From Candidatus Saccharimonadales bacterium (GTDB lineage Bacteria > Patescibacteriota > Saccharimonadia > Saccharimonadales > DATKHC01), in assembly GCA_038317055.1 (NCBI GenBank), contig JBBQBA010000002.1, positions 136,106 to 180,966 of the forward strand: DNA of 44,861 nucleotides. The letters are read 5' to 3'. Of the stretch, positions 2,542 to 27,769 are shown one piece after another (the first letter of the stretch is position 1; each line of letters begins with the position of its first letter). The notes under the pieces are model-generated. The model was not told where the DNA came from and did no database searches. It saw only the letters and a list, made by a program, of their open reading frames with translations. Made by a program: the position numbers and the translations under genes.

Positions 2542-2566
2542 TAATTATTTGGGGGTGGAAATTTAG

Positions 2567-3821: not shown

Positions 3822-3942
3822 GGTTGTTAGATAATCTCATATAATTAAATATTTGCAAGCTAAAGCATGTTAATATTGATCCCGCTATTGGTTGCGGTAG
3901 GATAGCTCAACCTTTATACTTTTTTCTATAGACGGGGTTAGT

Positions 3943-5879: not shown

Positions 5880-6382
5880 TACATCTTTCGTAGCTCAATA
5901 AAATCATAATCAAATTGGTTTTTCTCATCATTTTTATATTCTTGTTTGTTTATAGTTTTCCATTCATGTGGGTTTAGCTCAGGAAAAAAAGCATCACCAT
6001 CAATTTTAGTGTGTACGGTAGTTAAAAATATATGGTTAACAATTCCGGCATCAATAGCACTCTTATATAGTTGTCCTCCACCAATAATAAAACAAAAATC
6101 GTCACTTAAATCGATAGATTTACCTAAATCTTTGATTGATTTAAAAACCTCAAAACCATCCGGTACTTGAGTAAGTGAAGTCGATATTATTAAATTTCGG
6201 CGATTCGGAAGTGGTTTACCTAGACTGTTAATAATTGACTCATAAGTCTTTCGTCCCATAACAACTGTATGATTTTCAGTTATTTCCCTAAAGTGCTTCA
6301 TATCGTTAGATAATCGCCACGGTATAGTGTTAGCTTTTCCTATTACATGATTCTCTGATTCGGCAACAACTATTGTACTCAT
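5879..6382 (-). CDS. folA: Dihydrofolate reductase
   Basis: 167 aa. IPWRLSNDMKHFREIT, GRKTYESI and IIGGGQLY are classic DHFR motifs. ATGA overlap with thyA. Confidence 0.85.
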   Translation of the reverse strand: MSTIVVAESENHVIGKANTIPWRLSNDMKHFREITENHTVVMGRKTYESIINSLGKPLPNRRNLIISTSLTQVPDGFEVFKSIKDLGKSIDLSDDFCFIIGGGQLYKSAIDAGIVNHIFLTTVHTKIDGDAFFPELNPHEWKTINKQEYKNDEKNQFDYDFIELRKM

Positions 6383-7272: not shown

Positions 7273-7371
7273 AAAACCCCTTAACTTGTTTCAGCCTAAT
7301 TATAACAAAATGAAGTGTTATGAGTATTAAACATATTTGCATACAGTAGTAGATTGTTATAAATTTATACT

Positions 7372-8034
7372 ATGCATAAACAAGTGTTGACTAAACCCGT
7401 ATTAATTATTCTCTACGGTTTCCCGGGATCTGGTAAAACCTTTTTTTCAAGACAATTTTCTGATGAAATCAATGCCGCCAATGTTAACGGTGACTATTTA
7501 AGGGATGAGTTCTTTGATGAACCAACATATAGTAAAGATGAAAACGATGTCGTAAATCATCTAAGTCTATTCATGGTTTCTCAGTTTTTAGAAACTGGAG
7601 TCAGCGTAGTTTATGATGCCAGCTCGATAAAAAAAAGCGAAAGAAGAATTTTAAAAGATATGGCTATGCGTGCTAAAACTGATTCATTAATTGTTTGGCT
7701 TCAAATAGACATAGAAAGTGCGTTTGCAAGAGTAAATAACCGAGATAGACGACGTACCGATGATAAATATAACCGTGAGTTAGACAGAACCACTTTTGAA
7801 ACGATAATAAGCCAAATGCAGAACCCAGTTCTTAACGAAGATTATGTAGTTATATCAGGTAAACATAACTTTATAACACACAAGAACGCTGTTATGAAGA
7901 AGCTGTATGAAAAAGGTCTTATTAACCAGGAAACAGCTGACACAAAAATGGTTAAACCAGGTCTTGTAAATCGTGTGCCTAATCTACTTGGAGGCAGAGT
8001 AGATGCTGCCAGACGTAATATTTCCATTCATTAA
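7372..8034 (+). CDS. P-loop kinase / AAA_33-like ATPase
   Basis: Walker A GFPGSGKTF near the N-terminus, 220 aa. Substrate unknown. Confidence 0.6.
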   Translation: MHKQVLTKPVLIILYGFPGSGKTFFSRQFSDEINAANVNGDYLRDEFFDEPTYSKDENDVVNHLSLFMVSQFLETGVSVVYDASSIKKSERRILKDMAMRAKTDSLIVWLQIDIESAFARVNNRDRRRTDDKYNRELDRTTFETIISQMQNPVLNEDYVVISGKHNFITHKNAVMKKLYEKGLINQETADTKMVKPGLVNRVPNLLGGRVDAARRNISIH

Positions 8035-8744
8035 TGGCTGTTAAAAAAGTTATTTTACCTAAGATTGGTGAAGTTAGTTTATATAAACGTAAGGGCGCTA
8101 AGTCGATGCGTATTAGTATCAGTCATGAAGGTGGTGTTAGGTTAACGCTACCAAAATGGACGCCATATAGCGCTGGAATCGCGTTTATCGGAAGTCATAT
8201 TGATTGGATTAATGCCCATAGAGTTCCTGATATGCCCGGCTTTTCGACTAATATGCGTATTGGTAAAGCACATAAATTAGTTTTTATAACTGATCCAACA
8301 ATAAAAAAAGTATCGACCAGAATTACTCTCAATGAAGCCAGAGTCATACTACCTATTGGAATTGAACCTGATTCTGAATCGGCGCAGAAATTTGCTAAAA
8401 CCGTAACTCTTAGAACATTAAAGTACGAAGCGGAGGAACTACTACCTAAAAAATTAAATCTATTGGCAGATTTACATGGTTTTAGCTATAACCAGATAAA
8501 AATTAAACAACTTAAAACTAGATGGGGAAGTTGTAATAATTTTAAACAAATAACCCTTAGTTTTTACTTGATGCAACTACCCTGGGAATTAATTGATTAC
8601 GTTATATTACATGAGCTTACGCATACTAAAGTCTTAGCCCATGGACCAAAGTTTTGGGAAGAATTTAATAAACACTTACCTAATGCCAAAGCTTTTAAGA
8701 AACAAATTAATACGTACAAACCGGTTATTGATACAACTTTATAA
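8034..8744 (+). CDS. DUF45 / YgjP-like zinc metallohydrolase (M48-like)
   Basis: ILHELTHTKVLAHGPKFW (HExxH followed by H..FW) near the C-terminus, as in the YgjP family. TAATG overlap with the upstream kinase. Confidence 0.75.
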   Translation: MAVKKVILPKIGEVSLYKRKGAKSMRISISHEGGVRLTLPKWTPYSAGIAFIGSHIDWINAHRVPDMPGFSTNMRIGKAHKLVFITDPTIKKVSTRITLNEARVILPIGIEPDSESAQKFAKTVTLRTLKYEAEELLPKKLNLLADLHGFSYNQIKIKQLKTRWGSCNNFKQITLSFYLMQLPWELIDYVILHELTHTKVLAHGPKFWEEFNKHLPNAKAFKKQINTYKPVIDTTL

Positions 8745-8785
8745 CTAGTCAGATTAGAGGTAATGTGATTTAATAACTGCTTATT

Positions 8786-9532
8786 ATGAGTGAATATAGA
8801 CACAATCATGACCTCGATAATGTTTTTGAAACAGATAAATACGTAGTAGAAAAGGTAGCCGAGTATCTAGCACGAGTTGTAGACGCTGAAATACCTGGTT
8901 TTCAAATTAGTCACGACATGAGTATTCCGATAATAGATGAGACCAAAAAGGATCCATCTTTTTCTTCGCAAAAACAGATTGCACATTGGAGACACCAAGC
9001 ATTAATATTGGCAGCAGCAAATTTAACTAATCCTAGTCTAATAGTTTCAAGAATGTTTAGTGAATCCGATAGCGAAAAATTCTCTAATGTAACAGCTGCT
9101 CACTACGATAAAGATAGAGATCCTTTTGATCCTGAAGATGGTTTTATTATGGTCTTGAGACTACATACTGCAGATGAACAAAACGGGGCAGTTGGTTTAA
9201 TGGTAAACGGTGCACCGGGTTTAACTGCTAAAAATGGTGACCAAGATTTGTTTGTTCCTGGTTCATGGGAACCGACAAAAGAAGCTTTAGAATTTGGTTA
9301 TGACGGATCACCTAGTTTATCTACATTTGATTTATTGGAGTATTTACATGAGGACAGTTTTGATCCAATAGTTAGTGAAGCAGACGTATATCACTTTACT
9401 CAATATCCGTTGTCAAGCATTATATTTAGATCTAAAACAAACCTTGGTCAGGCTGTACCTCATGTATTTGCCTCAGATTATAATGAAGATAGATATCCTT
9501 TGAGGTCAGATTTGGATGTATTTACCAGCTAG
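8786..9532 (+). CDS. Hypothetical protein (possible HxD...H cupin/oxygenase-like)
   Basis: 248-aa ORF. Motif order AHYD ... GFIMVLRL ... PHVF is shared with the cassette ORF at 16041-16886. Confidence 0.5.
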   Translation: MSEYRHNHDLDNVFETDKYVVEKVAEYLARVVDAEIPGFQISHDMSIPIIDETKKDPSFSSQKQIAHWRHQALILAAANLTNPSLIVSRMFSESDSEKFSNVTAAHYDKDRDPFDPEDGFIMVLRLHTADEQNGAVGLMVNGAPGLTAKNGDQDLFVPGSWEPTKEALEFGYDGSPSLSTFDLLEYLHEDSFDPIVSEADVYHFTQYPLSSIIFRSKTNLGQAVPHVFASDYNEDRYPLRSDLDVFTS

Positions 9533-10016
9533 GAGGTAAATCATCTAAAGAACGACTTAATATTTCAGCGTTTTGAACTACGTGCGTAGTTTCTAGTGTA
9601 GTTACTAGAGCACTTAGAGGTAATCTGTTTTCAGCATCTGTATTGGGAGAATTGTATGTCATATCACTATATTTAAATCTTTTACCACCTTGACTATCAG
9701 ATACATCTTTAATTCTATGAGCATAAACATTAGCTGGATGACTAACACCCTGGAAGTCCCAGGTAATCTCAATATCCATTAATTCATGTAGTCCATGATT
9801 ACGAACGCTATCAAGAACTATTTTACGACCGTGGTCAAATTCATTGACACACGCATAAGTTTGTTCATCAGGCGTCCAAAAAATACCTAAGGCTAGCTTT
9901 GCTGCCTTTTCAGATAGTCTACTTAACCTAAAGCTTTCTATATGATCACTAGTTATACTAAAAACAGCCTTGCCTACTTCAACTAATCCTTCAGATATTT
10001 CTGTTCTAATTTTCAT
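9522..10016 (-). CDS. Hypothetical protein
   Basis: 164-aa ORF. Its 3' end overlaps the convergent gene by 11 nt. Confidence 0.45.
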   Translation of the reverse strand: MKIRTEISEGLVEVGKAVFSITSDHIESFRLSRLSEKAAKLALGIFWTPDEQTYACVNEFDHGRKIVLDSVRNHGLHELMDIEITWDFQGVSHPANVYAHRIKDVSDSQGGKRFKYSDMTYNSPNTDAENRLPLSALVTTLETTHVVQNAEILSRSLDDLPPSW

Positions 10017-12530: not shown

Positions 12531-12540
12531 AAAATTATTA

Positions 12541-12569
12541 GTTCGAATCCCACAACTCCAGCCATAAGC
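12541..12569 (+). repeat. Array repeat R1; a tRNA 3'-fragment (G53 to CCA) with no 5' part
   Basis: GTTCGAATCCCACAACTCCAGCCATAAGC. This parses as T-loop TTCGAAT, 5-nt T-stem strand CCCAC, 7-nt acceptor strand AACTCCA, G73, CCA. The upstream bases (ATTAG) cannot form the T stem. Starts 10 nt after the rplA stop. Confidence 0.8.
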
Positions 12570-12572
12570 ACT

Positions 12573-12600
12573 TTGGCAAATCGAATAATTAGTGTATAAA
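12573..12600 (+). promoter_or_regulatory. Candidate promoter of cassette 1
   Basis: TTGGCA, 16-nt spacer, TATAAA. The -35 lies in the tail of R1. ATG 12610 begins 10 nt after the -10. Confidence 0.4.
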
Positions 12601-12609
12601 TTGTCTTAT

Positions 12610-12807
12610 ATGAATAGATATAAAAGCTCATGGGAAGGAACTAATATTCCACCTGATGAAATGGATCCAGTAACTGTATCAATAGACGAAATTGAAAGAG
12701 GCCAAAGAGTTAACATAGAGGTTAGACACGAAGATGGAACGGTAAAAAACTTCCATATATATACAATACCTCTTCTTGAGACTATCGAACCCCCGTTGCC
12801 TCTTTAG
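12610..12807 (+). CDS. Small hypothetical protein (cassette 1)
   Basis: 65 aa from ATG 12610; the ORF track starts at GTG 12592 (71 aa). The C-terminal codons and the TAG stop lie inside degenerate repeat copy R1b. Confidence 0.4.
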   Translation: MNRYKSSWEGTNIPPDEMDPVTVSIDEIERGQRVNIEVRHEDGTVKNFHIYTIPLLETIEPPLPL

Positions 12808-12816
12808 ACCATAAGC
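12785..12816 (+). repeat. Degenerate array repeat (R1b)
   Basis: TCGAACCCCCGTTGCCTCTTTAGACCATAAGC shares TCGAA-CCC, CTTTAG and CCATAAGC with R1 and R9. Confidence 0.35.
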
Positions 12817-12840
12817 GGGTAAATAGCTTCCATTTAGACA

Positions 12841-12877
12841 GTTCTGAACTCGGACTCTAGCCCCAGCCAAGCATAAG
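12841..12877 (+). repeat. Array repeat R2
   Basis: GTTCTGAACTCGGACTCTAGCCCCAGCCAAGCATAAG. Contains the 10-mer CCCAGCCAAG, identical to tRNA-Gln 39366-39375. Confidence 0.8.
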
Positions 12878-12884
12878 TATAATG

Positions 12885-12910
12885 AAAGACTTTTTCGGAA
12901 GTCTTTTTTT
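12885..12910 (+). terminator. Rho-independent terminator
   Basis: AAAGACTT / loop TTCGG-type / AAGTCTTT 8-bp perfect stem followed by a T-run (12907-12910). Lies downstream of R2, so R2 would be transcribed in the 3' UTR. Confidence 0.6.
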
Positions 12911-12916
12911 AAAGAT

Positions 12917-12925
12917 TGCTATACT
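12917..12925 (+). promoter_or_regulatory. Extended -10 promoter of cassette 2 (leaderless geometry)
   Basis: TGcTATACT. ATG 12932 begins exactly 7 nt after the last -10 base. No SD. Confidence 0.45.
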
Positions 12926-12931
12926 TTTTAT

Positions 12932-13531
12932 ATGAGTAAAGTAACATGTGGTATAGCGATGTCCTTGGACGGTTTTGTTGCAGGTAATAATTTGACTTTA
13001 GAAAATCCGTTCGGTGATATAAAACCAGAAATACTCATGAAGTGGATGTTCGATGAGCCCGAGAAGCATAAGAAAGAGATTGAATCGCTGACTACTGCGG
13101 GTGCATTTATTATGGGAAGTAACATGTTTGGACCCGAGGACATCCGTATGACTGATGCCTGGAAAGGCTGGTGGGGTGATAATCCACCATACCATGCCCC
13201 AGTATTTGTTTTATCACACACGAAAAGAGACCCAATAGTTATGGATGGCGGCACAACCTTTACTTTTGTAACTGATGGTATCGAATCAGCATTGAAACTC
13301 GCACGATCCGCAGCTGGAACAAAAGATGTGGATATTGCAGGCGGTGCCAATACTATTAATCAGTATCTTAGAGCTGGGCATATAGATGAATTGTGGCTAC
13401 ACATTGTTCCCGTGACTATCGGCCATGGCCAACGACTTTTTTCGGATATGCCAGACATTCATTTTAAACCACTGGAAGTACGAACGACCGATTTAGTGAC
13501 ACATATCAAATACACTATTGTTCGTACCTAA
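12932..13531 (+). CDS. RibD C-terminal domain / dihydrofolate-reductase-family protein (cassette 2)
   Basis: 199 aa. MSKVTCGIAMSLDGFVAG..., GSNMFGP and DIAGGANTINQYLRAGHIDELWLHIVPV are typical of the RibD_C (YwjB/YyaP-like) family. Confidence 0.8.
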   Translation: MSKVTCGIAMSLDGFVAGNNLTLENPFGDIKPEILMKWMFDEPEKHKKEIESLTTAGAFIMGSNMFGPEDIRMTDAWKGWWGDNPPYHAPVFVLSHTKRDPIVMDGGTTFTFVTDGIESALKLARSAAGTKDVDIAGGANTINQYLRAGHIDELWLHIVPVTIGHGQRLFSDMPDIHFKPLEVRTTDLVTHIKYTIVRT

Positions 13532-13545
13532 AATACCTGATTGTA

Positions 13546-13586
13546 GTTCTGAGATCCGACTCCAGCCCTTGCCAAACTATATAGGA
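13546..13586 (+). repeat. Array repeat R3 (the copy most like tRNA-Gln plus its flank)
   Basis: GTTCTGAGATCCGACTCCAGCCCTTGCCAAACTATATAGGA. The head matches the tRNA-Gln T-loop region with two 1-nt insertions. The tail matches the flank after tRNA-Gln in 15 of 17 alignment columns (1 mismatch, 1 single-nt gap). Confidence 0.75.
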
Positions 13587-13637
13587 ATGCCCCTTTTTTA
13601 ATTGAAATTAAGGTGGGTGTTGATTGTATTTAAAGGC

Positions 13638-13673
13638 GTTTAACACTGAACATAATGTCCAGCCAAGCATTAG
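13638..13673 (+). repeat. Array repeat R4 (internally deleted copy)
   Basis: GTT-TAACA-CTGAAC...GTCCAGCCAAGCATTAG. Shares CTGAAC and CCAGCCAAGCAT-AG with R2. The unit between R3 and R4 has no ORF. Confidence 0.55.
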
Positions 13674-13713
13674 CACTATGACACTATTCTTGGAATCTTT
13701 TCGATCGGATTAT

Positions 13714-14061
13714 TTAGTGACGCCTTAGGTATTCAAGCAGGACTTGCGCGTGATTAACTGTTGGATCATGGGCCGCGTAGAGTAATGTGGTCGTGAGATG
13801 TTCTTTAAGGATACTCTTTAGCTGCGACACTACTGGGTTAATATCAAGCTCCAATTCATAACGAACTGTAAATTCAGCGAACCGCTCTGGCTTGTGGTCA
13901 AACCATGTTCGTAGGTCAGAAGAGGGTGCGATATCTTTGAGCCACAAGTCCAACAGCGCCTTTTCCTTACTAACTCCTCTTGGCCATAATCTATCAATCA
14001 GCACCCGATAGCCGTCAGCCTTCAAAGGTTTGTCGTAGATTCGTTTTATAGAAATAGCCAT
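13714..14061 (-). CDS. DUF488 (YeaO-like) protein (cassette 4, opposite strand)
   Basis: MAISIKRIYDKPLKADGYRVLIDRLWPRGVSKEKA...WLKDIAPSSDLRTWFDH closely parallels the E. coli YeaO architecture. The ORF-track start at 14103 adds 14 unlikely residues. TATTAT lies 9 nt upstream of ATG 14061. Confidence 0.8.
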   Translation of the reverse strand: MAISIKRIYDKPLKADGYRVLIDRLWPRGVSKEKALLDLWLKDIAPSSDLRTWFDHKPERFAEFTVRYELELDINPVVSQLKSILKEHLTTTLLYAAHDPTVNHAQVLLEYLRRH

Positions 14062-14161
14062 GTACTTTTTATAATACGCCGAATCAATCGTGTTTCTCAA
14101 CAATTAATCAAATAGTGGTACAATATTTGGTAACGGTAAAATACAAAAAGAACGTTTTTTT

Positions 14162-15575
14162 ATGACGGGAACACACCCTCTAGGCAAAGCAATAAAAGAC
14201 CTGATGATTAAAGATGTGCCTAGCTATGGTAACAAGCTTTTCTATTCTTTGGGCTTTTTGTCAATGATATCATTCTTAGTTCTCATAGTTACAGGTACAA
14301 TTATGGCAATGTACGGCCCGAATTGGTGGCTAACCAGCAGCTTTGGTACTTACTTGCGCAGCGTCCATTTATGGGCCACACAAGCCTTCGTATTGTTTAT
14401 ATTGCTCCATGTGCTAATAGTGTTCTTTACGTCCGGCTTTAAGAAACCACGTCGGCTCACGTGGGTTCTTGGTGTACTTATGTTGTTTATTGTGCTTGCG
14501 GAAACTGAGTTTGGGTATGTCCTTAGAGGCGACTTTTTCCTCGCAGTGGAGAGGTTTACAAGGAGCTGACTTCTATAATGGCAGCGGACTTGGCAAGTAC
14601 TTTAACCCCTTAAATTATAATCAGATATACGGCATACACATTGTTGTAATACCACTGTCTATAATTGGCTTACTCTTTTTACATTATTTGTTAGTCCGCG
14701 TGCTAGGCATTGCCAAGCCATATAGAAAAGACGTCCATGTTAAAACCGTATCCGCGAATCATAAAATCCTATTTATGCGTGGCGGCGTCCTTGTTGTTCT
14801 CATACTGGGATTAGCTGTAGTTCTGCCCTCCCCATACATAAAACCAACGACTATCCAATCGGTCGCTCTACAAGATCCGATACTATTTAGCAAAACGGTC
14901 GTTTCTGAGCTTGATCATTCCTCAGACACTGCTACATATGTCGACAACATTGCCCCTTATACTTACGACACGCGTTCAATTTACGTTACACAGCCGTACA
15001 CTCAGCTTTTACAAACCCGTGCCATAGTTGTTAATAATCTGTCACTATTCTTCACCGAACCACGAGCAATCCAAGATCAACAGATAAAAACTCTCTCCGA
15101 CTATTTAGCTAACGATAATGCCGACTTCGCCAAGCTACCTACTAGCCCTGTTTCATCAATTGCAAAATCCTTAACCATTATGGCGCAGGCTGGGTTATAC
15201 GAGTCATCACTAAATAGCAACAGCAGCGTGACCAAATTTAAAGATGGGACCACTTACTCTAGTCGCTTTTTATCAGACACGGGGGTGCTTGAAGACAAAG
15301 CCACAGCCCTAAATATTACGACGGATCAGTACGGTATGATAAGAGAGGAAAAAGGGCACACTCCCGGCGCCTGGTGGTTAGGTCCGATTGGCATACTAAA
15401 CCATACTGTTCTTAAGAATGATGATACTGGCGATCGGGATGGCGCCATAATTTTCGGCTCGTTATTGCTCACGATGTTAGCATTTCCGTTCATCCCTTAT
15501 GTTAACCAACTTCCTGACAAGCTCAAAGTATACAAGTTAATTTGGCATGAAAAAGGCGGTCGTTTAACGAAATAG
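14162..15575 (+). pseudogene. Cytochrome b N-terminal-domain-like membrane protein, interrupted by a 1-nt frameshift in a T5 run
   Basis: Frame 1 (14162-14569) has LRSVHLWATQAFVLFILLHVL (cytochrome b/b6-like His-containing helices) and ends 30 nt after TTTTT at 14534-14538. Frame +1 (to 15575) continues as ...SSQWRGLQGADFYNG. Skipping one T joins GYVLRGDF to SSQWRG. Confidence 0.65.
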
Positions 15576-15606
15576 TTCCTGGTCCATATACTCAGTCAGC
15601 GTAAGC
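15575..15606 (+). repeat. Degenerate array repeat (R5)
   Basis: GTTCCTGGTCCATATACTCAGTCAGCGTAAGC shares GTTC.., ..TC..., CAGC.TAAGC with the family. Starts on the G of the TAG stop. Confidence 0.35.
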
Positions 15607-15628
15607 TGTTTGGGATTTATATCCAGTC

Positions 15629-15637
15629 TGATAATAT
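15629..15637 (+). promoter_or_regulatory. Extended -10 promoter of cassette 5 (leaderless geometry)
   Basis: TGaTAATAT. ATG 15644 begins exactly 7 nt after the -10. Confidence 0.4.
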
Positions 15638-15643
15638 GATTCT

Positions 15644-15913
15644 ATGAAACAGAGTAAACTCATCCTATCTCTTATAACAATTGATGCAATTGTATTTATA
15701 TTTTCTTTATCCGCAACAATTAATAATATCCAGAGACTCGAAGGGTCTATTAATAACACTCCAGTATGCAACACCGCTGCAAATGGAGGACCCTGCTATC
15801 TAACTTCAAATTTATGGGCATACTTCACTATAATGATTCTTACTGCTGGGATTATGGGGCTGCTTGCCGCCCATCTTTATAAACGAGTTATAGATAAACC
15901 AGAACCGAAATAG
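15644..15913 (+). CDS. Small two-TM membrane protein (cassette 5)
   Basis: 89 aa with two hydrophobic helices (LILSLITIDAIVFIFSL and YFTIMILTAGIMGLLAAHL). Confidence 0.5.
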   Translation: MKQSKLILSLITIDAIVFIFSLSATINNIQRLEGSINNTPVCNTAANGGPCYLTSNLWAYFTIMILTAGIMGLLAAHLYKRVIDKPEPK

Positions 15914-15933
15914 AGTCATATTTGTCCTAAAAT

Positions 15934-15966
15934 GTTCGGAACTCGGACTGGATGATCAGCCATTAG
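15934..15966 (+). repeat. Array repeat R6
   Basis: GTTCGGAACTCGGACTGGATGATCAGCCATTAG. The first 16 nt are identical to R7. Confidence 0.8.
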
Positions 15967-15987
15967 TGGTTTAACTATTTAGTGGGT

Positions 15988-16016
15988 TTGATTTATCTTA
16001 AATTAAGTCGGATAAT
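15988..16016 (+). promoter_or_regulatory. Candidate promoter of cassette 6
   Basis: TTGATT, 17-nt spacer, GATAAT. An SD GGGGA at 16031-16035 precedes ATG 16041. Confidence 0.45.
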
Positions 16017-16040
16017 AGGTACATTAAATAGGGGAATGAC

Positions 16041-16886
16041 ATGCCGAACTTAGATATGGACAGAATGTTTGAGTCTATGACAGAGCCAACAGAATTGACT
16101 GCTGAAATTGATTTAATTGGGAAAGAAGGCCAAGGTGATTTTAGAGTATCTGAAATACATGGTGGAGTACTAAATTTTTCTGAAACTATCTTCAAAGGTG
16201 TGCCTTTAGATAGTGTATATGCTCAAGAGGGTCATAGGGAGGCACAAGGTAAAGGTCCACATTTTGATTTATCGGGCGATTTTCTAGATGAACAATACCC
16301 AATACTTGGTGTTTATAACTTGTCAGGTTTCTCGATTTTGAGATTAGCTACTATGCCTGATCAACTGGCTAAGGCTTATTTTGATACATATCCTGAGCTT
16401 AATGAGGCAGCTTACGAAGCGAGAAGGCAATTTGGAGCTATTGTATTGAATGCTCCAAATATTCAATCGTTTGAAGGCAATTTTACGCCAGGTATGGCAT
16501 TAGTGATACCTCAACTAAAGAACCATGAAGGTCCTCATGTAGTCCACGAGATTATTCCGACAGGTCATGGAAATACTTTCGGAAAATATGTAAAATTAGC
16601 AGTTCCCGACTATGAAAGTGATACTGCAGTGGAAATGTTAAAGAACGATGGCTTTATTCCATTGGATGAGCTAGTAACATCTCGTTTAACCGGAGAAGAC
16701 GAAGCCAATGACAGCATAGTTAGACCAGTGGTTGTACCGGGGGTGTCTGTTTCCGATAAAAATGGTGGAATAATAGATGCATTTACTGAAGGAAGATTGC
16801 CTGCTGACCCTACTCAACCTAATAGCAGAACTACAAGAATCCCACGCCCAACTGGAAGAGCGCGAAGATCAGGCTTAATAGATTGA
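16041..16886 (+). CDS. Hypothetical protein (cassette 6), possible HxD...H cupin/oxygenase-like
   Basis: 281-aa ORF. Motif order PHFD ... GFSILRL ... GPHVVHE parallels ORF 8786-9532. Pro/Arg-rich C-terminal tail. Confidence 0.6.
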   Translation: MPNLDMDRMFESMTEPTELTAEIDLIGKEGQGDFRVSEIHGGVLNFSETIFKGVPLDSVYAQEGHREAQGKGPHFDLSGDFLDEQYPILGVYNLSGFSILRLATMPDQLAKAYFDTYPELNEAAYEARRQFGAIVLNAPNIQSFEGNFTPGMALVIPQLKNHEGPHVVHEIIPTGHGNTFGKYVKLAVPDYESDTAVEMLKNDGFIPLDELVTSRLTGEDEANDSIVRPVVVPGVSVSDKNGGIIDAFTEGRLPADPTQPNSRTTRIPRPTGRARRSGLID

Positions 16887-16948
16887 TCAAGTTTATAATT
16901 GGTTAATGTGTTAACTGTTAGGAAAATGTAATATCTGACACCTTAATT

Positions 16949-16982
16949 GTTCGGAACTCGGACTATAGCTCCAGCCATAAAC
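16949..16982 (+). repeat. Array repeat R7 (closest to consensus)
   Basis: GTTCGGAACTCGGACTATAGCTCCAGCCATAAAC. The tail GCCATAAACATTTTGAC parallels the R1 tail GCCATAAGCACTTTGGC. Confidence 0.85.
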
Positions 16983-17038
16983 ATTTTGACCTCAATCAAC
17001 TTTTATGTCGTAAAGTTTAAGTTTTAGTTACTTACGGG

Positions 17039-17047
17039 TGATATAAT
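17039..17047 (+). promoter_or_regulatory. Extended -10 promoter of cassette 7 (leaderless geometry)
   Basis: TGaTATAAT (perfect TGnTATAAT). ATG 17054 begins exactly 7 nt after the -10. Confidence 0.5.
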
Positions 17048-17053
17048 TAGATA

Positions 17054-17302
17054 ATGAGTTTAACAAGTACAGATCTAGCAGATATTAGAGGCATTCTTAA
17101 GGAGGAGCTAGAGCTACTACAAGGTGAGCTTAAAGCTTTGAGTAATGATATAAATGTTATTTACCAAATGATCTCTGATTTACAGAATAAAACATTACCA
17201 AATAAGTAATTCCAAAAACTTAGCGTGTAGCAGAAGCTTATAAAATTAAACTCTGACCTTCTTTTTGCTGCAAAACAAGCTGGTGTACGGTTACCGCGAT
17301 AA
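17054..17302 (+). pseudogene. Small coiled-coil ORF (51 aa to TAA 17207-17209) whose frame continues through TAA and TAG to 17302; likely a decayed gene
   Basis: MSLTSTDLADIRGILKEELELLQGELKALSNDINVIYQMISDLQNKTLPNK*FQKLSV*QKLIKLNSDLLFAAKQAGVRLPR*, all in one frame. Below the ORF-track size cut-off. Confidence 0.35.
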
Positions 17303-17320
17303 TTGAATATAACCTAAAAA

Positions 17321-17352
17321 GTTATGTACTCAACCTCTAGCCCCAGCCAAAT
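17321..17352 (+). repeat. Array repeat R8
   Basis: GTTATGTACTCAACCTCTAGCCCCAGCCAAAT. The 3' half CTCTAGCCCCAGCCAA is identical to R2. Confidence 0.7.
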
Positions 17353-17361
17353 TACTTAAAC

Positions 17362-17390
17362 TTGCATTGAGACATGAATAGTAAGATACT
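17362..17390 (+). promoter_or_regulatory. Candidate promoter of cassette 8
   Basis: TTGCAT, 17-nt spacer, GATACT. An SD GGAG at 17406-17409 precedes ATG 17417. Confidence 0.4.
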
Positions 17391-17416
17391 TTCATTAGAT
17401 TTAATCGGAGACAAGC

Positions 17417-17797
17417 ATGAAAATACGAAGTAAGTTAAATGAAGAAAGACATCCTGAATTCCTACCATCAGAATGTCTAGGAGAAGCATGTCCGAATTTC
17501 ACCGGTTCAGCCTGTGATGATAGTGAAGTTGAATGGATGAGAGCGGACGCTCCGACCAAAAAAAGAGATACAAAAAAACCACCTTTTAAAGATGACACAA
17601 GATATATAATTTATGGACAACGATGTCTGACTGGAGAGGGCCCAGAATTAGTAGCACAACGAGTAGAAATTTATAAACCTGACGAAGTTAATATGGCTGG
17701 AATCATTGCAATAACAGGCATGTATGGCGAAATGCCAGTTGAAGTTGTAAACGGGTATCTATCTGGGTCTATTCAGAATATCGTTACTTCAGAATAA
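17417..17797 (+). CDS. Hypothetical protein (cassette 8)
   Basis: 126-aa ORF with a GGAG SD. Cys-containing N-terminus (ECLGEACPNFTGSAC). No family recognised. Confidence 0.55.
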   Translation: MKIRSKLNEERHPEFLPSECLGEACPNFTGSACDDSEVEWMRADAPTKKRDTKKPPFKDDTRYIIYGQRCLTGEGPELVAQRVEIYKPDEVNMAGIIAITGMYGEMPVEVVNGYLSGSIQNIVTSE

Positions 17798-17798
17798 A

Positions 17799-17832
17799 GT
17801 TCGGAACTCGGTCTTTAGCTCCAGTCAAGATG
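17799..17832 (+). repeat. Array repeat R9 (last clear copy)
   Basis: GTTCGGAACTCGGTCTTTAGCTCCAGTCAAGATG, with 1 nt between it and the stop of the preceding ORF. Confidence 0.8.
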
Positions 17833-17862
17833 TAACCTTATTTTTACAATACTTGCACTAAA

Positions 17863-17871
17863 TGTTACTAT
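17863..17871 (+). promoter_or_regulatory. Extended -10 promoter upstream of the patatin-like gene
   Basis: TGtTACTAT. This geometry favours ATG 17881 (10 nt after the -10) over the ORF-track ATG 17872, which abuts the -10. Confidence 0.4.
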
Positions 17872-18864
17872 ATGTTCTCAATGAGTTTGGAAGTTTTAGA
17901 TATATTAAAGGAACGGTCATTAGACGGCTATATATCAGGTTATGATAATGACGAGCATAATGTAGTTATTTCTATAGACAGCGGGGGCATGGCGGGTTCT
18001 GTTGGTTGTGGATCCCTAGAGGTTCTACAGGAAGAAGGCTTACTTAAAGTAGTCGATGGTTACTCTGGGGCATCAATCGGAGCAATTATTGCCTCATATG
18101 CTGCATTAGGTCGCATCGATCAAATTGAAGAAGCATTTACTGAACCGATGACTGAGACTAGATTTATGGCTTCTAATTTACTAGGTAGAGTTGCATCCTA
18201 TGTTAGTTTCAAAAGAGATAAAACCGGAAATATTCCAGCCGCACAAAATATGGGAGTACTTGGTGACATTATTCATGGAGATCTCGATACAAAAAATCTA
18301 AGAATGTCTGAAGTACCAATAGTAGCTAGTATCACATCTTTAGATGAGTTTGAAACAGTTGGTCGAGACCTAAGAGAACTAAATGATAATCAAATTATAG
18401 ATTTTTTAACTCGTGGTTGTGCGTTTCCATTTGTAAGCGGCCAATATATTGGAGTTGAAGGCATTACCAGTCGAGCAATTGATGGTGCTTTTACTTTGTT
18501 AGCTAGCGAACAACTCGCACTTTCGCTAGACCCAACTAATATTCTAAGTATAGGGCTTACACCATATAAAAAATGGGAATATGGAATAAAAGAAAAACTA
18601 GCTAGAAGAATAGTTGGAATGTGGTTAGCTCAAGATGCAGGATTAGGTGTAAATATATATAAAAAATACGTCCAGCTGGGTGATGTACAAGCCGAGTATT
18701 TAAAACAGTTTAGTAAGAGTGGCTTTACTCTAAATGGAGTGATTGTGGAGAAAGTATATCCACGGGCTGATAAAGATTTGCCAGGTAGACTTACTATGGA
18801 TCCTAATAAGATAAAAAGAGGTTTCATATTAGGACGACAGGCAATGCAAACTGCGCTTAAATAA
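17872..18864 (+). CDS. Patatin-like phospholipase
   Basis: DSGGMAGSVG (oxyanion Gly-rich loop), GASIG (GxSxG nucleophile) and AIDGAF (catalytic Asp, DGA). The start may be 17881. Confidence 0.75.
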   Translation: MFSMSLEVLDILKERSLDGYISGYDNDEHNVVISIDSGGMAGSVGCGSLEVLQEEGLLKVVDGYSGASIGAIIASYAALGRIDQIEEAFTEPMTETRFMASNLLGRVASYVSFKRDKTGNIPAAQNMGVLGDIIHGDLDTKNLRMSEVPIVASITSLDEFETVGRDLRELNDNQIIDFLTRGCAFPFVSGQYIGVEGITSRAIDGAFTLLASEQLALSLDPTNILSIGLTPYKKWEYGIKEKLARRIVGMWLAQDAGLGVNIYKKYVQLGDVQAEYLKQFSKSGFTLNGVIVEKVYPRADKDLPGRLTMDPNKIKRGFILGRQAMQTALK

Positions 18865-18931
18865 AAGGTAAATAATTAAAATAATTATAATATACAAGAT
18901 CGCAAATAAATCGTTTTACTCCTAATTTAAA

Positions 18932-19114
18932 TTAAAGTATTTTCTGGTCAGGTTTAATTACTTGATCTGATTGTTTCACTGTGGAGCCATTGAGTGGCTC
19001 GTTGCTGATATGCATCTGATCAATATTTATTGTTGATACTGGAGTTAAACTACCAAGATCTTTCAGCGAACGATGATGAAATTTCCAATAAACAAATCCA
19101 CTTCCAAGTAACAC
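18932..19114 (-). CDS. Small protein; probable N-terminal TM anchor lies upstream of any canonical start
   Basis: The frame is open from 19189. The hydrophobic helix SIYYLLATVVLVLLGSGFVYW is cut by the only canonical start (GTG 19114). Only ATT codons lie further upstream. Confidence 0.3.
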   Translation of the reverse strand: MLLGSGFVYWKFHHRSLKDLGSLTPVSTINIDQMHISNEPLNGSTVKQSDQVIKPDQKIL

Positions 19115-19181
19115 AAGAACTACAGTAGCTAGTAAGTAATAAATTGAGTCAGAATTAGTGCTTTTACTAATAGGTTTAGTA

Positions 19182-20198
19182 CTAACTAGCTAACTCTATA
19201 CTTAGTAGTTTATTTTGAGCGCTGGTGAGTGTAACTTGCGTACTAGTAATTTTGTTGTTGGGTCCAACAACAATAATGGTGTGTTTACCAATTAAAACAT
19301 TTTGAAAAGTAGCTAGTCCGTCTTTATCTGTCGTAACGGACATTTTGTTATCCAGGGTTACTTTAGCTCCCGGGATTGATTGAGCCTGTTTAGTATCGAC
19401 AGCTACAGTTAGCGTGGCGGTTGATTTAACGGTAGACGAATCGACTAATGGATTTGTTGAGCTTGGTATCGCTGCTGTAATAGCTGGTGTGGTTGTGGTG
19501 GTAGTTGTTGTTTTCTTAGATGAAGAACTAGAACCTGTTCCAGAAACCGGGGTTGACCCTGAGCTTTGGGCTGGGGTAGATGTAGTTAAAAAAGTCAAAT
19601 TTTGGACTGCATTATCATTTGATACATCGCCAAAACTGAGATTACAGATATAACCCGCCGCAACCTGAGCAGGAGTTGGAGGACAAGGATATTTAGCTGC
19701 GTCAACAGCGGCATCACCGCCCGTACTATCTGTACCTGTATTTGGAGGTCCAACTGTGCCGGTAACGATAGTAAAGGCCGTTGAAGGTATATTTCCACTA
19801 CTATCAGTGTTTACTAACGCTGAAAAAGGCTTAGAGCACGATACAGGTATTGGATTCCCGAAAAAAGTGATTGTAGGTTGACTTGGATCGCTATTACATT
19901 CAAGTATTGATCCAGTTGAATTTGCCGTAAAACCTGACCCCGAAACAGTAACAACCTGTCCGTTACTAAGGTTAGTGCTTGGCGTGACACTCATGGACCC
20001 GGATGCCCAAATAACAACGGGACTAAATATATAAGCTACTACTGAAATAGTAAGTAAATATTTTATTATATTTTGTTTTATTGAAGTTTGTTTTTCTATA
20101 GTGATGCTCCTAGAACTATAGTCTACTTTGATTATACAATTAAATTGGATATTAAATATATATAATAATTTCATAAATCTCACCACTACAGTGGTCAT
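19182..20198 (-). CDS. Secreted/cell-surface protein with a poly-Thr linker
   Basis: Hydrophobic signal/anchor (YLLTISVVAYIFSPVVIWASG), a beta-rich domain (VTPSTNLSNGQVVTVSGSGF), a Ser/Thr-rich linker (KKTTTTTTTTP) and a C-terminal beta domain. Exact start uncertain. Confidence 0.6.
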   Translation of the reverse strand: MTTVVVRFMKLLYIFNIQFNCIIKVDYSSRSITIEKQTSIKQNIIKYLLTISVVAYIFSPVVIWASGSMSVTPSTNLSNGQVVTVSGSGFTANSTGSILECNSDPSQPTITFFGNPIPVSCSKPFSALVNTDSSGNIPSTAFTIVTGTVGPPNTGTDSTGGDAAVDAAKYPCPPTPAQVAAGYICNLSFGDVSNDNAVQNLTFLTTSTPAQSSGSTPVSGTGSSSSSKKTTTTTTTTPAITAAIPSSTNPLVDSSTVKSTATLTVAVDTKQAQSIPGAKVTLDNKMSVTTDKDGLATFQNVLIGKHTIIVVGPNNKITSTQVTLTSAQNKLLSIELAS

Positions 20199-20239
20199 AG
20201 GATAGGTTTTAGGTGAAATATCCCCTATAATACCTGGTT

Positions 20240-21898
20240 ATGCTCTTATCCGTTGAAATAGCTGAAAAATCTTTTGGTCATAAAACTCTATATAATGATT
20301 TAAGTTTTGATATTCAAGAAAATGAAAAAGTGGGATTTATCGGCAGGAATGGTACCGGTAAATCAACTTTGCTAAATTTAATAACCGGAGAAGATAAAGA
20401 TTTTCATGGTAAAGTTCAGATTAAGCGTGGAACAGTACTTATAAGTAGTAGGCAAGAACATCATGATCATGAAGCTAAGACAGTACTAGAATACATTCAG
20501 GGCGATTTACCGGAATACGCATACCTAACAAAGATTATCGATACATATCCAGACACGATGGGTAGTGACACTAGAAAACTACAAGTTTTTTCAGATGCGT
20601 TAGAACGTTTTGGTCAACTTGATTATTATCAAATTGAAGACGAAATTAAACAAGCTTTTGAAAGTTATCAAATTGACCCAAATAAACTTCATAAATCCAT
20701 TGGCTCATTAAGTGGTGGTGAGAAAAGAATGATAGAGCTAATTAAAGTCCAACGTAGCCGTGGGCATGTTGCACTAATTGACGAACCAACCAACCATATG
20801 GACTATGTTGCCAAAGCTGAGTTTATTAAGTGGCTCAAAAGTGCTCAAGAAGCTGTTCTTGTTATAACTCACGATAGAGACGTATTAACTACGGTAGATA
20901 GAATAATTGAGATTCGAGATGGAAAGTGTTTTAGCTTCCGAGGAAACTACGACGCATATTTAAAAACAAACACAAATCAAATTACTAATCAGGTTAATGA
21001 ATACGAATTATCTCAGAGACGTATAGCAAATCTCGAAGATGATGTTATTAGATTTAGACGATTAAAAGAAAAATCTCGTGATCCCGGTACAATTCATCGA
21101 TTTAAAGCACAAGAAACAAGAGCTAAAGACGAAATCGAAAAATTAAGAAAAACCGATAAACCTTCTTTTTGGATCGATCAAGAATCAGCAAACACGATGA
21201 ACGATAAATTAACGGCTGCTTATGACAAACATAAAGCCAAAAATATAAAAGTTTCGACCCGTAAAAAACATACAGATAGCGAAGGTAGGCGATTAATAAA
21301 AATTACTAAACTAAGCTTAGGATATGACGCCCCATTATTTAAAAATATTAACCTAGATCTACACGAGGGTGAGAGAATCAGACTACATGGTCGTAATGGG
21401 GCAGGTAAATCCACAATAGTTCAAGCGATTATGGCAGAAGCGAACAATCAGCAATTAGCATCTAAATGTTTTGATGGTTTAATAGAGGTTGAAAAAGAGA
21501 TAAAAATCGGACTATACGAACAAGAAATAAATTCTAGCTATTTAAAACTAACACTTAATGATGCACTTGAAAAAATCTTAGAAGATAAAAATCTTCCAAT
21601 TAATCCTCAAAAAATTAAACAACTTTTAAGCGATTATTTATTTAATCCTAATTCTGATGGGCAAATGTTAGTAGAACGATTAAGTGGCGGTCAAAAGGCA
21701 AGAGTACAGTTAATTTCAATGCTAGTTAATGATCCACAAGTATTAATTTTAGATGAACCAACAAATCACTTAGACCTACCTAGTATCGAAGAACTTGAAA
21801 ACTCCTTGAAAGATTATCATGGAGCTATAATATATATATCTCATGATAGCTTTTTTTCAAATAAAATGGGCGGTGATACCGTAACTATAAACGGTTAG
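20240..21898 (+). CDS. ABC-F family ATPase (two ABC domains, no TM domain)
   Basis: Two Walker A motifs (GRNGTGKST, GRNGAGKST), two signatures (LSGGEKRM, LSGGQKARV) and a charged inter-domain linker. Confidence 0.9.
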   Translation: MLLSVEIAEKSFGHKTLYNDLSFDIQENEKVGFIGRNGTGKSTLLNLITGEDKDFHGKVQIKRGTVLISSRQEHHDHEAKTVLEYIQGDLPEYAYLTKIIDTYPDTMGSDTRKLQVFSDALERFGQLDYYQIEDEIKQAFESYQIDPNKLHKSIGSLSGGEKRMIELIKVQRSRGHVALIDEPTNHMDYVAKAEFIKWLKSAQEAVLVITHDRDVLTTVDRIIEIRDGKCFSFRGNYDAYLKTNTNQITNQVNEYELSQRRIANLEDDVIRFRRLKEKSRDPGTIHRFKAQETRAKDEIEKLRKTDKPSFWIDQESANTMNDKLTAAYDKHKAKNIKVSTRKKHTDSEGRRLIKITKLSLGYDAPLFKNINLDLHEGERIRLHGRNGAGKSTIVQAIMAEANNQQLASKCFDGLIEVEKEIKIGLYEQEINSSYLKLTLNDALEKILEDKNLPINPQKIKQLLSDYLFNPNSDGQMLVERLSGGQKARVQLISMLVNDPQVLILDEPTNHLDLPSIEELENSLKDYHGAIIYISHDSFFSNKMGGDTVTING

Positions 21899-21959
21899 TT
21901 ATTAATTTAATATCCAATAGTCAGAATTGGTTATCTCATTATTGATATATAATGAACTT

Positions 21960-22511
21960 ATGTATTTAAGTAAGAATCAAGTTGCTCCAAACTTTACTAT
22001 TTCCGATATAAACGGCAAAAAGATTAAGTTAAGTGATTACGAAGGTAAAAAGCTACTTCTTTGTTTTTTTAGATATGCTGGTTGTCCATTCTGTAACTTA
22101 ATTCTTCAGAGTTTTATAGAACGCTACCCTAAACTTCATAAAAACGGTTTAGAGATATTAGCTTTTGTTCAATCTCCTAAAGAATCAATAATAGACTATA
22201 CGATGAAGCGTCATCATCCCAAACCACCTTTCCCCTTAATTGCTGATCCCAAACAAGAAATATACAAACTGTACGGAGTAGAAGCATCTGTGAGTAAGTT
22301 CGCTAGAAGTATTTTTAAAGTACCTTCTATGTTGAAAACTCTATATAAATATAAATATCCGCAAGGTAAAATAGACGGAAATGTTTTTTTAATGCCGGCA
22401 TTTTTCTTAATAGGTCCAGACGATCTAAAAATTTACGAATCTTATTATAGCCCTGATTTTTCAACGATGATACCAGATATAGATATAATCAATTTTCTCT
22501 CGGCGGTATAG
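21960..22511 (+). CDS. AhpC/TSA-redoxin family thioredoxin-fold protein (CPFC motif)
   Basis: APNFTISDINGKKIKLSDYEGKKLLLCFFRYAGCPFC is a peroxiredoxin-like N-terminus. ATG 21960 is preferred over TTG 21927. Confidence 0.65.
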   Translation: MYLSKNQVAPNFTISDINGKKIKLSDYEGKKLLLCFFRYAGCPFCNLILQSFIERYPKLHKNGLEILAFVQSPKESIIDYTMKRHHPKPPFPLIADPKQEIYKLYGVEASVSKFARSIFKVPSMLKTLYKYKYPQGKIDGNVFLMPAFFLIGPDDLKIYESYYSPDFSTMIPDIDIINFLSAV

Positions 22512-22514
22512 TCT

Positions 22515-27727: not shown

Positions 27728-27756
27728 TTGACGTTAAAGCCATTTTAAGATATACT
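27728..27756 (+). promoter_or_regulatory. Promoter of rplJL
   Basis: TTGACG, 17-nt spacer, TATACT, about 135 nt upstream of the rplJ ATG. Confidence 0.55.
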
Positions 27757-27769
27757 TACGAAGTTATTT

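Follow-up and report, generated by a model that had tools for sequence, protein, structure and literature searches.

A tandem array of small gene units separated by tRNA-Gln-derived direct repeats behind rplA in a Saccharimonadales genome

Accessory gene gain and turnover in the ultra-small, host-dependent Patescibacteria are poorly understood, and to our knowledge few mobile elements have been described for this group. We present here an array of short direct repeats and small, unrelated genes found in a stretch of 44,861 nucleotides (nt) from a Candidatus Saccharimonadales bacterium (GenBank assembly GCA_038317055.1, contig JBBQBA010000002.1, positions 136,106 to 180,966). This whole stretch is called the window, and coordinates are positions in it. 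The array begins directly behind rplA, the gene for ribosomal protein L1, and its repeats (R1, R1b, and R2 to R9) derive from a gene for glutamine tRNA (tRNA-Gln), specifically from its 3′ end. Our best reading is that the repeats are att-type recombination junctions that mark an insertion hotspot in this Saccharimonadales clade.

The array behind rplA

The gene order in the window is tRNA-Trp, secE, nusG, rplK, and rplA, with the L10 leader, rplJ, and rplL about 15 kb further on. Behind rplA lie the array (12541 to 17836) and then genes for a patatin, a neocarzinostatin/CarboxypepD_reg-domain protein, an ABC-F protein, and AhpC. In the three closest relatives (L1 proteins 69 to 79% identical), a convergent LPG_synthase_C gene stands 0 to 7 nt after rplA with no array between them and is followed by dcd, tmk-thyX, a small open reading frame (ORF), and rplJ; the window has the same genes from 22515 on. 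Because the relatives join rplA to the mprF-like gene and the window regains their order at 22515, the segment from 12531 to 22514 is an insertion. Its GC content is 0.39 to 0.43 over 13 to 17 kb against a background of about 0.33, and with this raised value and its absence from the same junction in three relatives, the segment looks foreign. Independent Logan contigs match the window at 100% identity from rplA to position 13916 and also contain the AhpC/mprF-like right junction, so the array is no assembly artifact.

The features of the array and the tRNA gene that bears on it are listed here in order. Loci and contigs from elsewhere carry L numbers, and the foreign-only profile is defined below.

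12531 to 22514 (no strand): inserted segment of about 10 kb flanked by two convergent stop codons, those of rplA and of an mprF-like (LPG_synthase_C) gene
12541 to 12575 (+): R1, array head; 24-nt canonical tRNA-Gln 3′ fragment, then trailer TAAGCACTTTG
12610 to 12807 (+): unit 1 cargo; 65-amino-acid (aa) ORF, also called as a gene in L001, an independent contig; without a match in Pfam, NCBIfam, or PHROGs
12785 to 12819 (+): R1b, putative degenerate copy, by eye; likeness to the motif limited to CCATAAGCGG
12840 to 12881 (+): R2, strong; GTTCTGAACTCGGACTCTAGCCCCAGCCA plus trailer AGCATAAGT; E = 4.3e-10 (foreign-only profile); one mismatch to the consensus
12932 to 13531 (+): unit 2 cargo; RibD_C-family reductase (Pfam PF01872, E = 1.2e-17)
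13545 to 13583 (+): R3, weak and degenerate; 60% identity in repeat family D2; profile E = 1.7
13638 to 13680 (+): R4, second site type (GTTTAACACTGAACATAATGTCCAGCCAAGCATTAGC); ends an "empty" unit of 92 nt
13714 to 14103 (-): unit 4 cargo a; DUF488 protein, against the repeat direction (Pfam PF22752/PF04343)
14162 to 15575 (+): unit 4 cargo b; cytochrome-b-like gene in two overlapping frames (14162 to 14569 and 14469 to 15575)
15575 to 15610 (+): R5, putative degenerate copy, by eye; trailer-like GCGTAAGC at 15598, short trailer resemblance CAGTCAGCGTAAGC
15644 to 15913 (+): unit 5 cargo; 89-aa predicted membrane protein; no family match
15931 to 15967 (+): R6, strong; E = 3.7e-9 (foreign-only profile)
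16041 to 16886 (+): unit 6 cargo; 281-aa ORFan without a match in Pfam, NCBIfam, or PHROGs
16947 to 16988 (+): R7, strong; no mismatch to the consensus; E = 6e-9; trailer TAAACATTTTG like that of R1; repeat family D16
17054 to 17209 (+): unit 7 cargo; 51-aa ORF with coiled-coil-like sequence; no family match
17321 to 17351 (+): R8, weak; left arm decayed, exact 12-mer TAGCCCCAGCCA kept; 63% in repeat family D1; E = 3
17417 to 17797 (+): unit 8 cargo; 126-aa protein; no family match (Pfam, NCBIfam, PHROGs)
17796 to 17836 (+): R9, last strong copy; two mismatches; E = 3e-7; nonconsensus trailer (AGATGTAACC)
17872 to 18864 (+): patatin-like phospholipase (Pfam PF01734), first gene after the last repeat, inside the insertion
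39300 to 39373 (+): native tRNA-Gln(TTG), intact; the position of the relatives' arrays, unoccupied here and with a different trailer

An earlier note on this DNA had reported eight clear and two degenerate copies of the motif. All ten start coordinates hold the sequences it quoted, but only four copies (12841, 15934, 16949, and 17799) are clear by statistics; four others are weak, and two, seen by eye, are supported by no tool. A pattern search of the window with the 29-nt consensus and up to three mismatches gave matches at 12841, 16949, and 17799, where shuffles expect none, and GTTC[GT]GAAC occurs four times in the 44.9 kb, on the + strand only, at exactly the four strong copies. These copies were also found with E = 4e-10 to 3e-7 by the foreign-only profile, which was built from 33 copies of other genomes with the window copies left out; in the rest of the window, outside 12.5 to 17.8 kb, this profile gave chance-level matches only. 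The weak copies at 13546, 13638, and 17321 are singly nonsignificant by the same profile (E = 1.7, 0.21, and 3); together with the copy at 12541, they draw their support from position or from matches in other genomes. The CTCCAGCCA end and trailer of R1 share 90% identity over 20 nt with the copy at 16949 (family D16), the 29-nt core of R2 is identical to one L029 copy behind tRNA-Gln, and R4 is 90.5% identical over 42 nt to L017:244-285, a site in another genome's array. The copies at 12785 and 15575, recovered by no pattern or profile search, are conjecture.

The motif is not palindromic, as had been noted. Single-stranded DNA folding of six copies gave z-scores of -1.1 to +1.05 relative to shuffles, no better than chance and with no conserved hairpin, and no inverted-repeat family in the window coincides with the copies. 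Rfam placed no family at the repeats, either with gathering thresholds (the window and eight loci) or in a permissive scan (12.4 to 18 kb). Readings as attC sites, repetitive extragenic palindromes (REP), or terminators were dropped on this lack of structure. The window copies form one 5.3-kb block on one strand, and the complete 780-kb chromosome OY969420.1 has matches to the exact pattern at two array loci only, which together with the lack of a fold also removed bacterial interspersed mosaic elements and miniature inverted-repeat transposable elements from consideration. An array of clustered regularly interspaced short palindromic repeats (CRISPR), already rejected in the earlier note along with REP elements and attC, was discarded on the spacing of 56 to 1,937 nt, the ORFs in the units, and the lack of cas domains in Pfam scans of the window.

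A terminator-like hairpin (12886 to 12910, +; AAGACTT-N6-AAGTCTT, AAGACTTCTTCGGAAGTCTT, and then a T run) stands directly after R2. The same hairpin module follows motif and trailer in L016 (about 680 to 725, after L016:644) and L017 (about 1225 to 1268, after L017:1187), and these two are 78% identical over 81 nt by blastn. Given this recurrence in three genomes, some of the sites may form an 80-nt site-plus-terminator module, perhaps one copied from a native tRNA-Gln terminator.

The units measure 56 to 1,937 nt, and the unit sizes reported earlier stand. So does the picture of a same-orientation array of small, functionally unrelated units, with the RibD_C, DUF488, two-frame cytochrome-b-like, and patatin genes confirmed by Pfam. 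Both cytochrome-b-like pieces match Pfam Cytochrome_B/Cytochrom_B_N_2; their frame split (14469 to 14569) lies near a T run and represents a frameshift, a pseudogene, or a sequencing error. The 281-aa unit 6 protein has no homologue but itself among 5.8 billion proteins, and a tblastx comparison of the window island with all loci revealed no cargo in common. Seven of the eight window ORFs are co-oriented with the motif, with stop codons 0 to 62 nt before it. The description of each cassette as an ORF with a 3′ repeat thus fits the window (co-orientation 7:1) but not the relatives, whose cargo is about half in the opposite direction. The cassettes had further been called self-promoted, which we do not uphold: promoter-like sites are at chance level (18 seen and 18.3 expected), and terminators are likewise not enriched.

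tRNA-Gln origin of the repeat and arrays in other genomes

In alignment, the motif covers the tRNA-Gln 3′ end (GTTC...CCAGCCA), starting at G53/T54 in the T-loop and ending with CCA, with one 5-nt indel; it is a diverged, 5-nt-longer tRNA-Gln 3′ end followed, after CCA, by the common trailer (A/T)AAGCATAAGC. R1 lacks the indel and has the T-loop TTCGAAT, T-stem CCCAC, acceptor AACTCCA, discriminator G (G73), and CCA. Its 24 nt differ by three mismatches from the 3′ end of the L005 tRNA-Gln(CTG) and by seven from that of the window's own tRNA-Gln(TTG). ARAGORN predicts no tRNA at R1, which starts 10 nt past the rplA stop codon, so the 5′ two-thirds of the tRNA gene are absent. Judged by these bases, R1 is a bona fide tRNA-Gln 3′ fragment, and it looks like an attL site that kept only the 3′ part of its tRNA.

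When single genomes of 185,579 species were scanned with an exact degenerate pattern, five loci were found, two of them labelled Saccharimonadales or Saccharibacteria and three labelled only "uncultured bacterium"; four of the five come from metagenome-assembled genomes with a size or label typical of Saccharibacteria, and L003 comes from a 1.9-Mb chromosome. A metagenome scan yielded 16 loci, 12 of which hold true copies. In the scans run, the motif is confined to arrays and not scattered, and at every locus all copies share one orientation. Six arrays (L004, L005, L011, L026, L028, and L029) lie directly downstream of an intact tRNA-Gln gene with the anticodon TTG (CTG in L005), and the L002 array starts at a decayed tRNA-Gln remnant that adjoins rplS. 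The derivation from a tRNA 3′ end had been proposed earlier and is here narrowed to tRNA-Gln, behind an intact copy of which the repeats normally lie in relatives. Given this normal home, the structure is a tRNA-seeded insertion hotspot, a known class. Two more distant Saccharibacteria (L030 and L032) have tRNA-Gln without the motif.

The relatives' arrays occupy the position that is empty in the window. A hydrolase gene upstream of the window's tRNA-Gln(TTG) is syntenic with L004, L011, L026, L028, and L029, and in the window, L026, L028, and L029 synteny takes in the whole block of hydrolase, AI-2E transporter, and cysS upstream of this tRNA. The homology that L026, L028, and L029 share with one another ends 4 to 15 nt past the tRNA 3′ end, that between the window and L011 ends exactly at it, and the DNA beyond tRNA-Gln differs in every genome compared. 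The comparison with relatives that the earlier note had proposed favors reading the repeats as recombination sites: homology breaks exactly at the repeat, and the relatives have no array at rplA and hold other units in the arrays that they do have. A start right after rplA is true of the window and peculiar to this genome. The 3′ end of the window's tRNA-Gln(TTG) has no extra copies in the window; downstream of the gene, only chance-level (E about 10) profile matches containing CCAGCCA occur, inside a neprosin gene, and the intergenic regions there show no decayed motif on inspection. L029 and L033, from the same sample, may together represent the genome of the closest relative. If so, that genome has its array at tRNA-Gln(TTG), with the window's site variant (…CTCTAGCCCCAGCCA), and an uninterrupted rplA/mprF junction.

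Units in the other arrays are about 350 to 1,900 nt long (median about 0.5 kb), with a few "empty" ones and outliers above 3 kb. Their cargo includes PIN and antitoxin genes, YoeB/YefM-like and ParE-like pairs, Fic/Doc, NYN, DUF4396, PNPOx, and glyoxalase genes, and many ORFans; RibD_C is part of this cargo set. Orientation relative to the motif is about half and half in L002, L004, L005, L028, and L029, and the ORFs nearest the tRNA are unrelated between different arrays.

Three further observations concern these loci. In L005 (4766 to 5806), a whole unit consisting of a DUF4396 gene and its site is present as a tandem duplicate, the proteins being 93% identical and the 3′ sites far more diverged. 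Half of the 12 short metagenomic contigs with a true copy (L007, L010, L012, L014, L015, and L017) end 2 to 90 nt from a motif, and the end of one Logan contig (L027) lies within tRNA-Gln; the repeats evidently interrupt assembly, through within-genome repetition or strain heterogeneity. Finally, a conserved stretch of about 45 to 60 nt (ATGATACGTACAGCATGAAAGTCCGTAAAGTC...) directly follows the tRNA-like site variant in L003 (1736 to 1790), L004 (3701 to 3642, -), and L006 (4546 to 4487, -). It has no Rfam match and could be ancestral tRNA-Gln flank or a small RNA.

Site anatomy and the mechanism proposed

The anatomy of the site was read from 37 copies. The GTTCGGAACTCGGACT block of the left arm is highly conserved, the next 7 nt vary by family (GGATGCC, CTAGCCC, ATAGCTC, or AGTTCTC), CAGCCA is nearly invariant, and the trailer is moderately conserved. 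At least two further left-arm types share the same CCAGCCA and trailer: a tRNA-like 24-nt type (R1 in the window, the head of L002, and the 3′ end of the Fic cassettes of L004 and L006) and a GTTTAACACTGAACATAATG type (R4 in the window, and L017). In the tRNAs that head arrays, the acceptor and T arms are canonical and complementary to the 5′ half of the same gene; the tRNA end is thus never exchanged for the 5-nt-longer arm. A trailer of the AAGCATAAGC type follows the array-heading tRNAs except that of L011, and unrelated trailers follow tRNA-Gln where there is no array (the window, L030, and L032); the trailer therefore arrives with the inserted DNA.

Breakpoints agree on one position. The 29-nt motifs of L006, L012, and L014 are identical and their flanks diverge immediately after CCAGCCA, and the Fic cassette shared by L004 and L015 (81% over 1,025 nt) starts right after CCAGCCA, with different neighbors on both sides. 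Because the tRNA arms are kept, the trailer arrives with the insert, and homology breaks after CCAGCCA, we infer that exchange takes place at or just after CCAGCCA. A unit would therefore consist of trailer, cargo, and left arm, with CCAGCCA common to neighbors. The AAGCATAAGC trailer is kept at most unit starts. Profile scores mostly drop with distance from the tRNA (45, 42, 13.5, and 7.7 bits in L005; also in L004, L011, and L028), as expected if new units enter beside the tRNA and sites later decay.

With moderate confidence, we explain the arrays by serial site-specific insertion, at the tRNA-Gln 3′ end, of small nonautonomous units that carry their own site and are moved in trans by an unlinked recombinase. 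Small pieces of foreign DNA would have been inserted there one after another, each bringing a left arm (GTTCGGAACTCGGACT plus 7 variable nt) that would mimic the T-loop and acceptor in a form not compatible with a tRNA, a common block CCAGCCA that would correspond to the last acceptor bases, G73, and CCA, and a right arm (A/T)AAGCATAAGC. Exchange at or just after CCAGCCA would leave the tRNA intact and seat the newcomer between it and the older units, so that every unit would end with its own left arm; the sites would decay after insertion. The cassettes would be nonautonomous because the units are too small (median about 0.5 kb) for a recombinase and none is encoded nearby. Their mobilization in trans, by a site-specific recombinase encoded elsewhere, would presumably pass through circular intermediates.

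The window array would be an orphaned or translocated example, set within the 10-kb insertion and headed by no more than the final 24 nt of a CTG-type tRNA-Gln gene. With its mixture of fresh sites, decayed sites, and a broken gene, most of it is probably fossil. Candidate routes to the rplA/mprF junction would be a deletion or rearrangement, one of whose breakpoints fell in the T-loop, the gain of a segment holding the tRNA 3′ end and array by illegitimate recombination, or a recombinase-mediated event at a secondary site.

Several observations weigh against this explanation. No recombinase of any family and no integrase fragment was found in the window, the units of about 12 arrays, or flanks of up to 10 kb per side in four. 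The searches comprised Pfam on essentially all window ORFs, with NCBIfam and PHROGs on those without a family; Pfam on the concatenated ORFs of 8-kb loci around L002 to L006; and precomputed Pfam matches in 10-kb flanks of six tRNA-Gln loci. (The lack of an integrase or transposase in the window had been reported before.) No circular or excised form was seen, in that no contig had terminal overlaps. The motif was not found in viral, phage, and plasmid collections: three motif patterns gave zero matches or one chance match, in a high-GC phage gene, in IMG/VR, and phage and plasmid collections gave no blastn match. The window array has no adjoining intact tRNA and sits behind rplA, and the tRNA of L011 heads an array but lacks the AAGCATAAGC trailer. 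L004 and L015 have different 3′ sites on their Fic cassette, which disagrees with a left arm tied to the left-hand unit, a linkage seen in few cases. The nearest available L1 proteins are 75 to 79% identical, so unit gain and loss are compared between species only. Incidental insertion sequence transposases occur at three loci: IS200 Y1 in L003 (by Pfam) and, by eye, an IS30-like one in L008 and an rve-like one in L006.

The units could instead be the last pieces of large integrase-carrying elements (prophages, integrative and conjugative elements [ICEs], or integrative and mobilizable elements [IMEs]) accreted at tRNA-Gln, where deletions spared a gene or two and attR. We regard such accretion and decay as unlikely. 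There is ample documentation of tRNA-seeded islands that contain decayed elements and scattered partial tRNAs, and the many decayed sites, the frameshifted gene in the window array, and the "empty" units (one of 92 nt in the window, one of about 20 nt in L015) all fit this origin. However, the units of about 12 arrays contain no integrase fragment, unit sizes cluster tightly at about 0.35 to 0.8 kb, and no full-size element bearing the motif appears in the viral, phage, and plasmid collections. The trailer retained at most unit starts also speaks against it, as does the Fic cassette that begins right after CCAGCCA in two genomes, for which random deletions would need to begin at the core each time.

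A still less probable account dispenses with a dedicated enzyme. The tRNA-Gln gene and the 30- to 45-bp motif would serve as anchors for RecA-dependent or homology-facilitated illegitimate recombination after natural transformation, by which units would be swapped between strains. Saccharibacteria are reported to be naturally competent, no recombinase gene was found, and similar motifs with different flanks on both sides exist (L009/L010 and L006/L012/L014), all of which this account would accommodate. Anchors of about 30 bp with mismatches, however, are poor RecA substrates. The account also leaves unexplained the conservation of a non-tRNA left arm, fixed in sequence and length, among genomes with L1 proteins only 60 to 79% identical, the breaks exactly after CCAGCCA, and the first origin of the sites.

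A motif acting at the RNA or transcription level (a tRNA-like 3′-end processing signal, an insulator, or an alternative-sigma promoter of the GGAAC-N16/17 type) would suit the co-orientation of seven of eight window ORFs with a motif 0 to 62 nt after their stops, the terminator-like hairpin after some copies, and the GGAAC within the motif, but it is very improbable, as about half of the relatives' cargo genes are on the strand opposite to the motif, the motif has no 5′ partner for a tRNA-like fold and no structure beyond shuffled controls, Rfam gives no match, and the tRNA-Gln linkage and synteny breaks are left unexplained.

Serial insertion in trans has a more far-reaching version, which we put forward tentatively as one possibility. 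The arrays may belong to an undescribed cassette capture system of a Saccharibacteria clade, in which an unlinked chromosomal recombinase inserts, excises, and shuffles recombinase-less single-gene cassettes at the tRNA-Gln 3′ end. Its sites might, equally tentatively, be short and double-stranded, with a left arm that varies among at least three types, the invariant CCAGCCA, and the AAGCATAAGC right arm. Such a system would be an integron analogue, with the tRNA gene in the role of attI and unstructured sites in that of attC, and the array next to rplA would show that whole arrays can relocate.

Comparison with known systems and neighboring features

The window feature is a tRNA-seeded insertion hotspot, a known class, in an unusual, cassette-like, and apparently recombinase-less variant. 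As in other tRNA-seeded islands, 3′-end repeats lie in one orientation, here as a 5-nt-longer variant rather than a literal copy, and synteny breaks 0 to 15 nt past the tRNA (L026, L028, L029, L011, and the window). An intact proximal tRNA is present at six relatives' loci; the window has the 24-nt 3′ fragment only. In full-text literature searches, no account of such a locus turned up for Saccharibacteria or Patescibacteria. It differs from the described cases in its tRNA-Gln target, cassette-sized units, lack of a recombinase module, and family of site variants with one core.

The closest described case is that of the Dehalococcoides ssrA islands (McMurdie et al. 2011, PMC3146451), tandem units behind the transfer-messenger RNA (tmRNA) gene with direct repeats of the gene's 3′ end. 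They have an element-borne conserved motif, without a match to the gene, just upstream of the repeat; they are hypervariable between strains; and their units without an integration module have been read as cis-mobilizable elements. The arrays here share the tandem units, 3′-end direct repeats, non-gene motif, hypervariability, and module-less units. The target is tmRNA in Dehalococcoides and tRNA-Gln here, and the insertion point would be the T-loop there and the CCA end here. About half of the Dehalococcoides islands carry a CcrB-like serine recombinase module and have several genes each, whereas no unit here has a recombinase and most units are about 0.35 to 1.9 kb with zero to two genes. 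In the tycheposon islands of Prochlorococcus (Hackl et al., bioRxiv 10.1101/2020.12.28.424599), successive tRNA integrations push older elements inward and leave partial tRNAs as att remnants. Those islands, too, adjoin tRNAs in a streamlined genome and have older elements pushed inward, but tycheposons have tyrosine recombinases, replication modules, fragmented integrases, and literal partial tRNAs, in contrast to the conserved non-tRNA variant and the absence of an integrase or fragment here.

A resemblance to integrons had been suggested earlier, and its logic of gene-sized cassettes with a site stands. As in integrons, especially sedentary chromosomal ones, gene-sized cassettes of unrelated and often unknown function, including toxin-antitoxin genes, are iterated with a terminal recombination-type site; insertion would take place at a single favored end, and cassettes can be duplicated in tandem. 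The likeness fails in that there is no adjacent IntI gene or attI/Pc platform, the site is neither palindromic nor folding as attC would be, cassettes lie in both orientations, and the insertion point is the end of a tRNA gene.

Cis-mobilizable elements (CIMEs) at the att sites of ICEs and IMEs (PMC5704250) are likewise att-bounded tandem segments without recombination genes at a tRNA-type target, with presumed mobilization in trans. They are described as deletion derivatives of ICEs or IMEs, usually several kilobases long and beside a helper, whereas each unit here is a single gene and no helper was seen. Xer-dependent modules (IMEX and the pdif modules of Acinetobacter) are also small and recombinase-less, with short simple sites and, for Xer modules, an enzyme encoded elsewhere in the genome. 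Their sites are dif-like 11-6-11 dyads for XerC/XerD, and pdif modules are flanked by inverted sites on plasmids. Inspection of the alignment showed at most a 4-bp ATGC/GCAT dyad around CCAGCCAA in the commonest variant, absent from the window copies, and the site here, unlike those of Xer modules, is bound up with tRNA-Gln.

The hypervariable tRNA-Gln site, with its toxin-antitoxin, Fic, lipase, redox, and unknown genes, would be a main gene entry point in the clade and a ready strain-typing marker in metagenomes. If cassettes are indeed mobilized in trans, this would be a second, independently evolved integron-like system, and its site of about 45 bp with the recombinase could become an integration tool for Saccharibacteria. 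For annotation, the window illustrates that an att array of tRNA type can become separated from the tRNA and lie immediately after a core gene of a ribosomal operon.

Additional features were noted around the array. Ribosomal protein L1 (11553 to 12530) has a Lys/Glu-rich N-terminal extension of about 125 aa, with the Pfam domain starting at residue 128, and a long L1 form (295 to 373 aa) is common to all the relatives listed. The L10 leader (27753 to 27876; RF00557, 54 bits) is intact upstream of rplJ despite the 15-kb gap between rplA and rplJ. A second variable region lies between tRNA-Trp and secE (1966 to 10016), where relatives have 1.5 to 6.5 kb with other genes; it contains dCMP deaminase, DHFR, ThyA, cytidylyltransferase, and HIT genes and five ORFs without a family match, and the tRNA-Trp 3′ end has no extra copies in the window. 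ThyA and DHFR (6379 to 7272 and 5879 to 6382) occur in one genome with a 735-aa Tmk-ThyX fusion (25091 to 27298), and therefore two thymidylate synthase systems lie within 20 kb. A neprosin-domain protein is encoded directly downstream of the native tRNA-Gln (39474 to 40397, -), and inside the insertion (19182 to 20198, -) a neocarzinostatin-family domain and a CarboxypepD_reg domain are combined in one protein.

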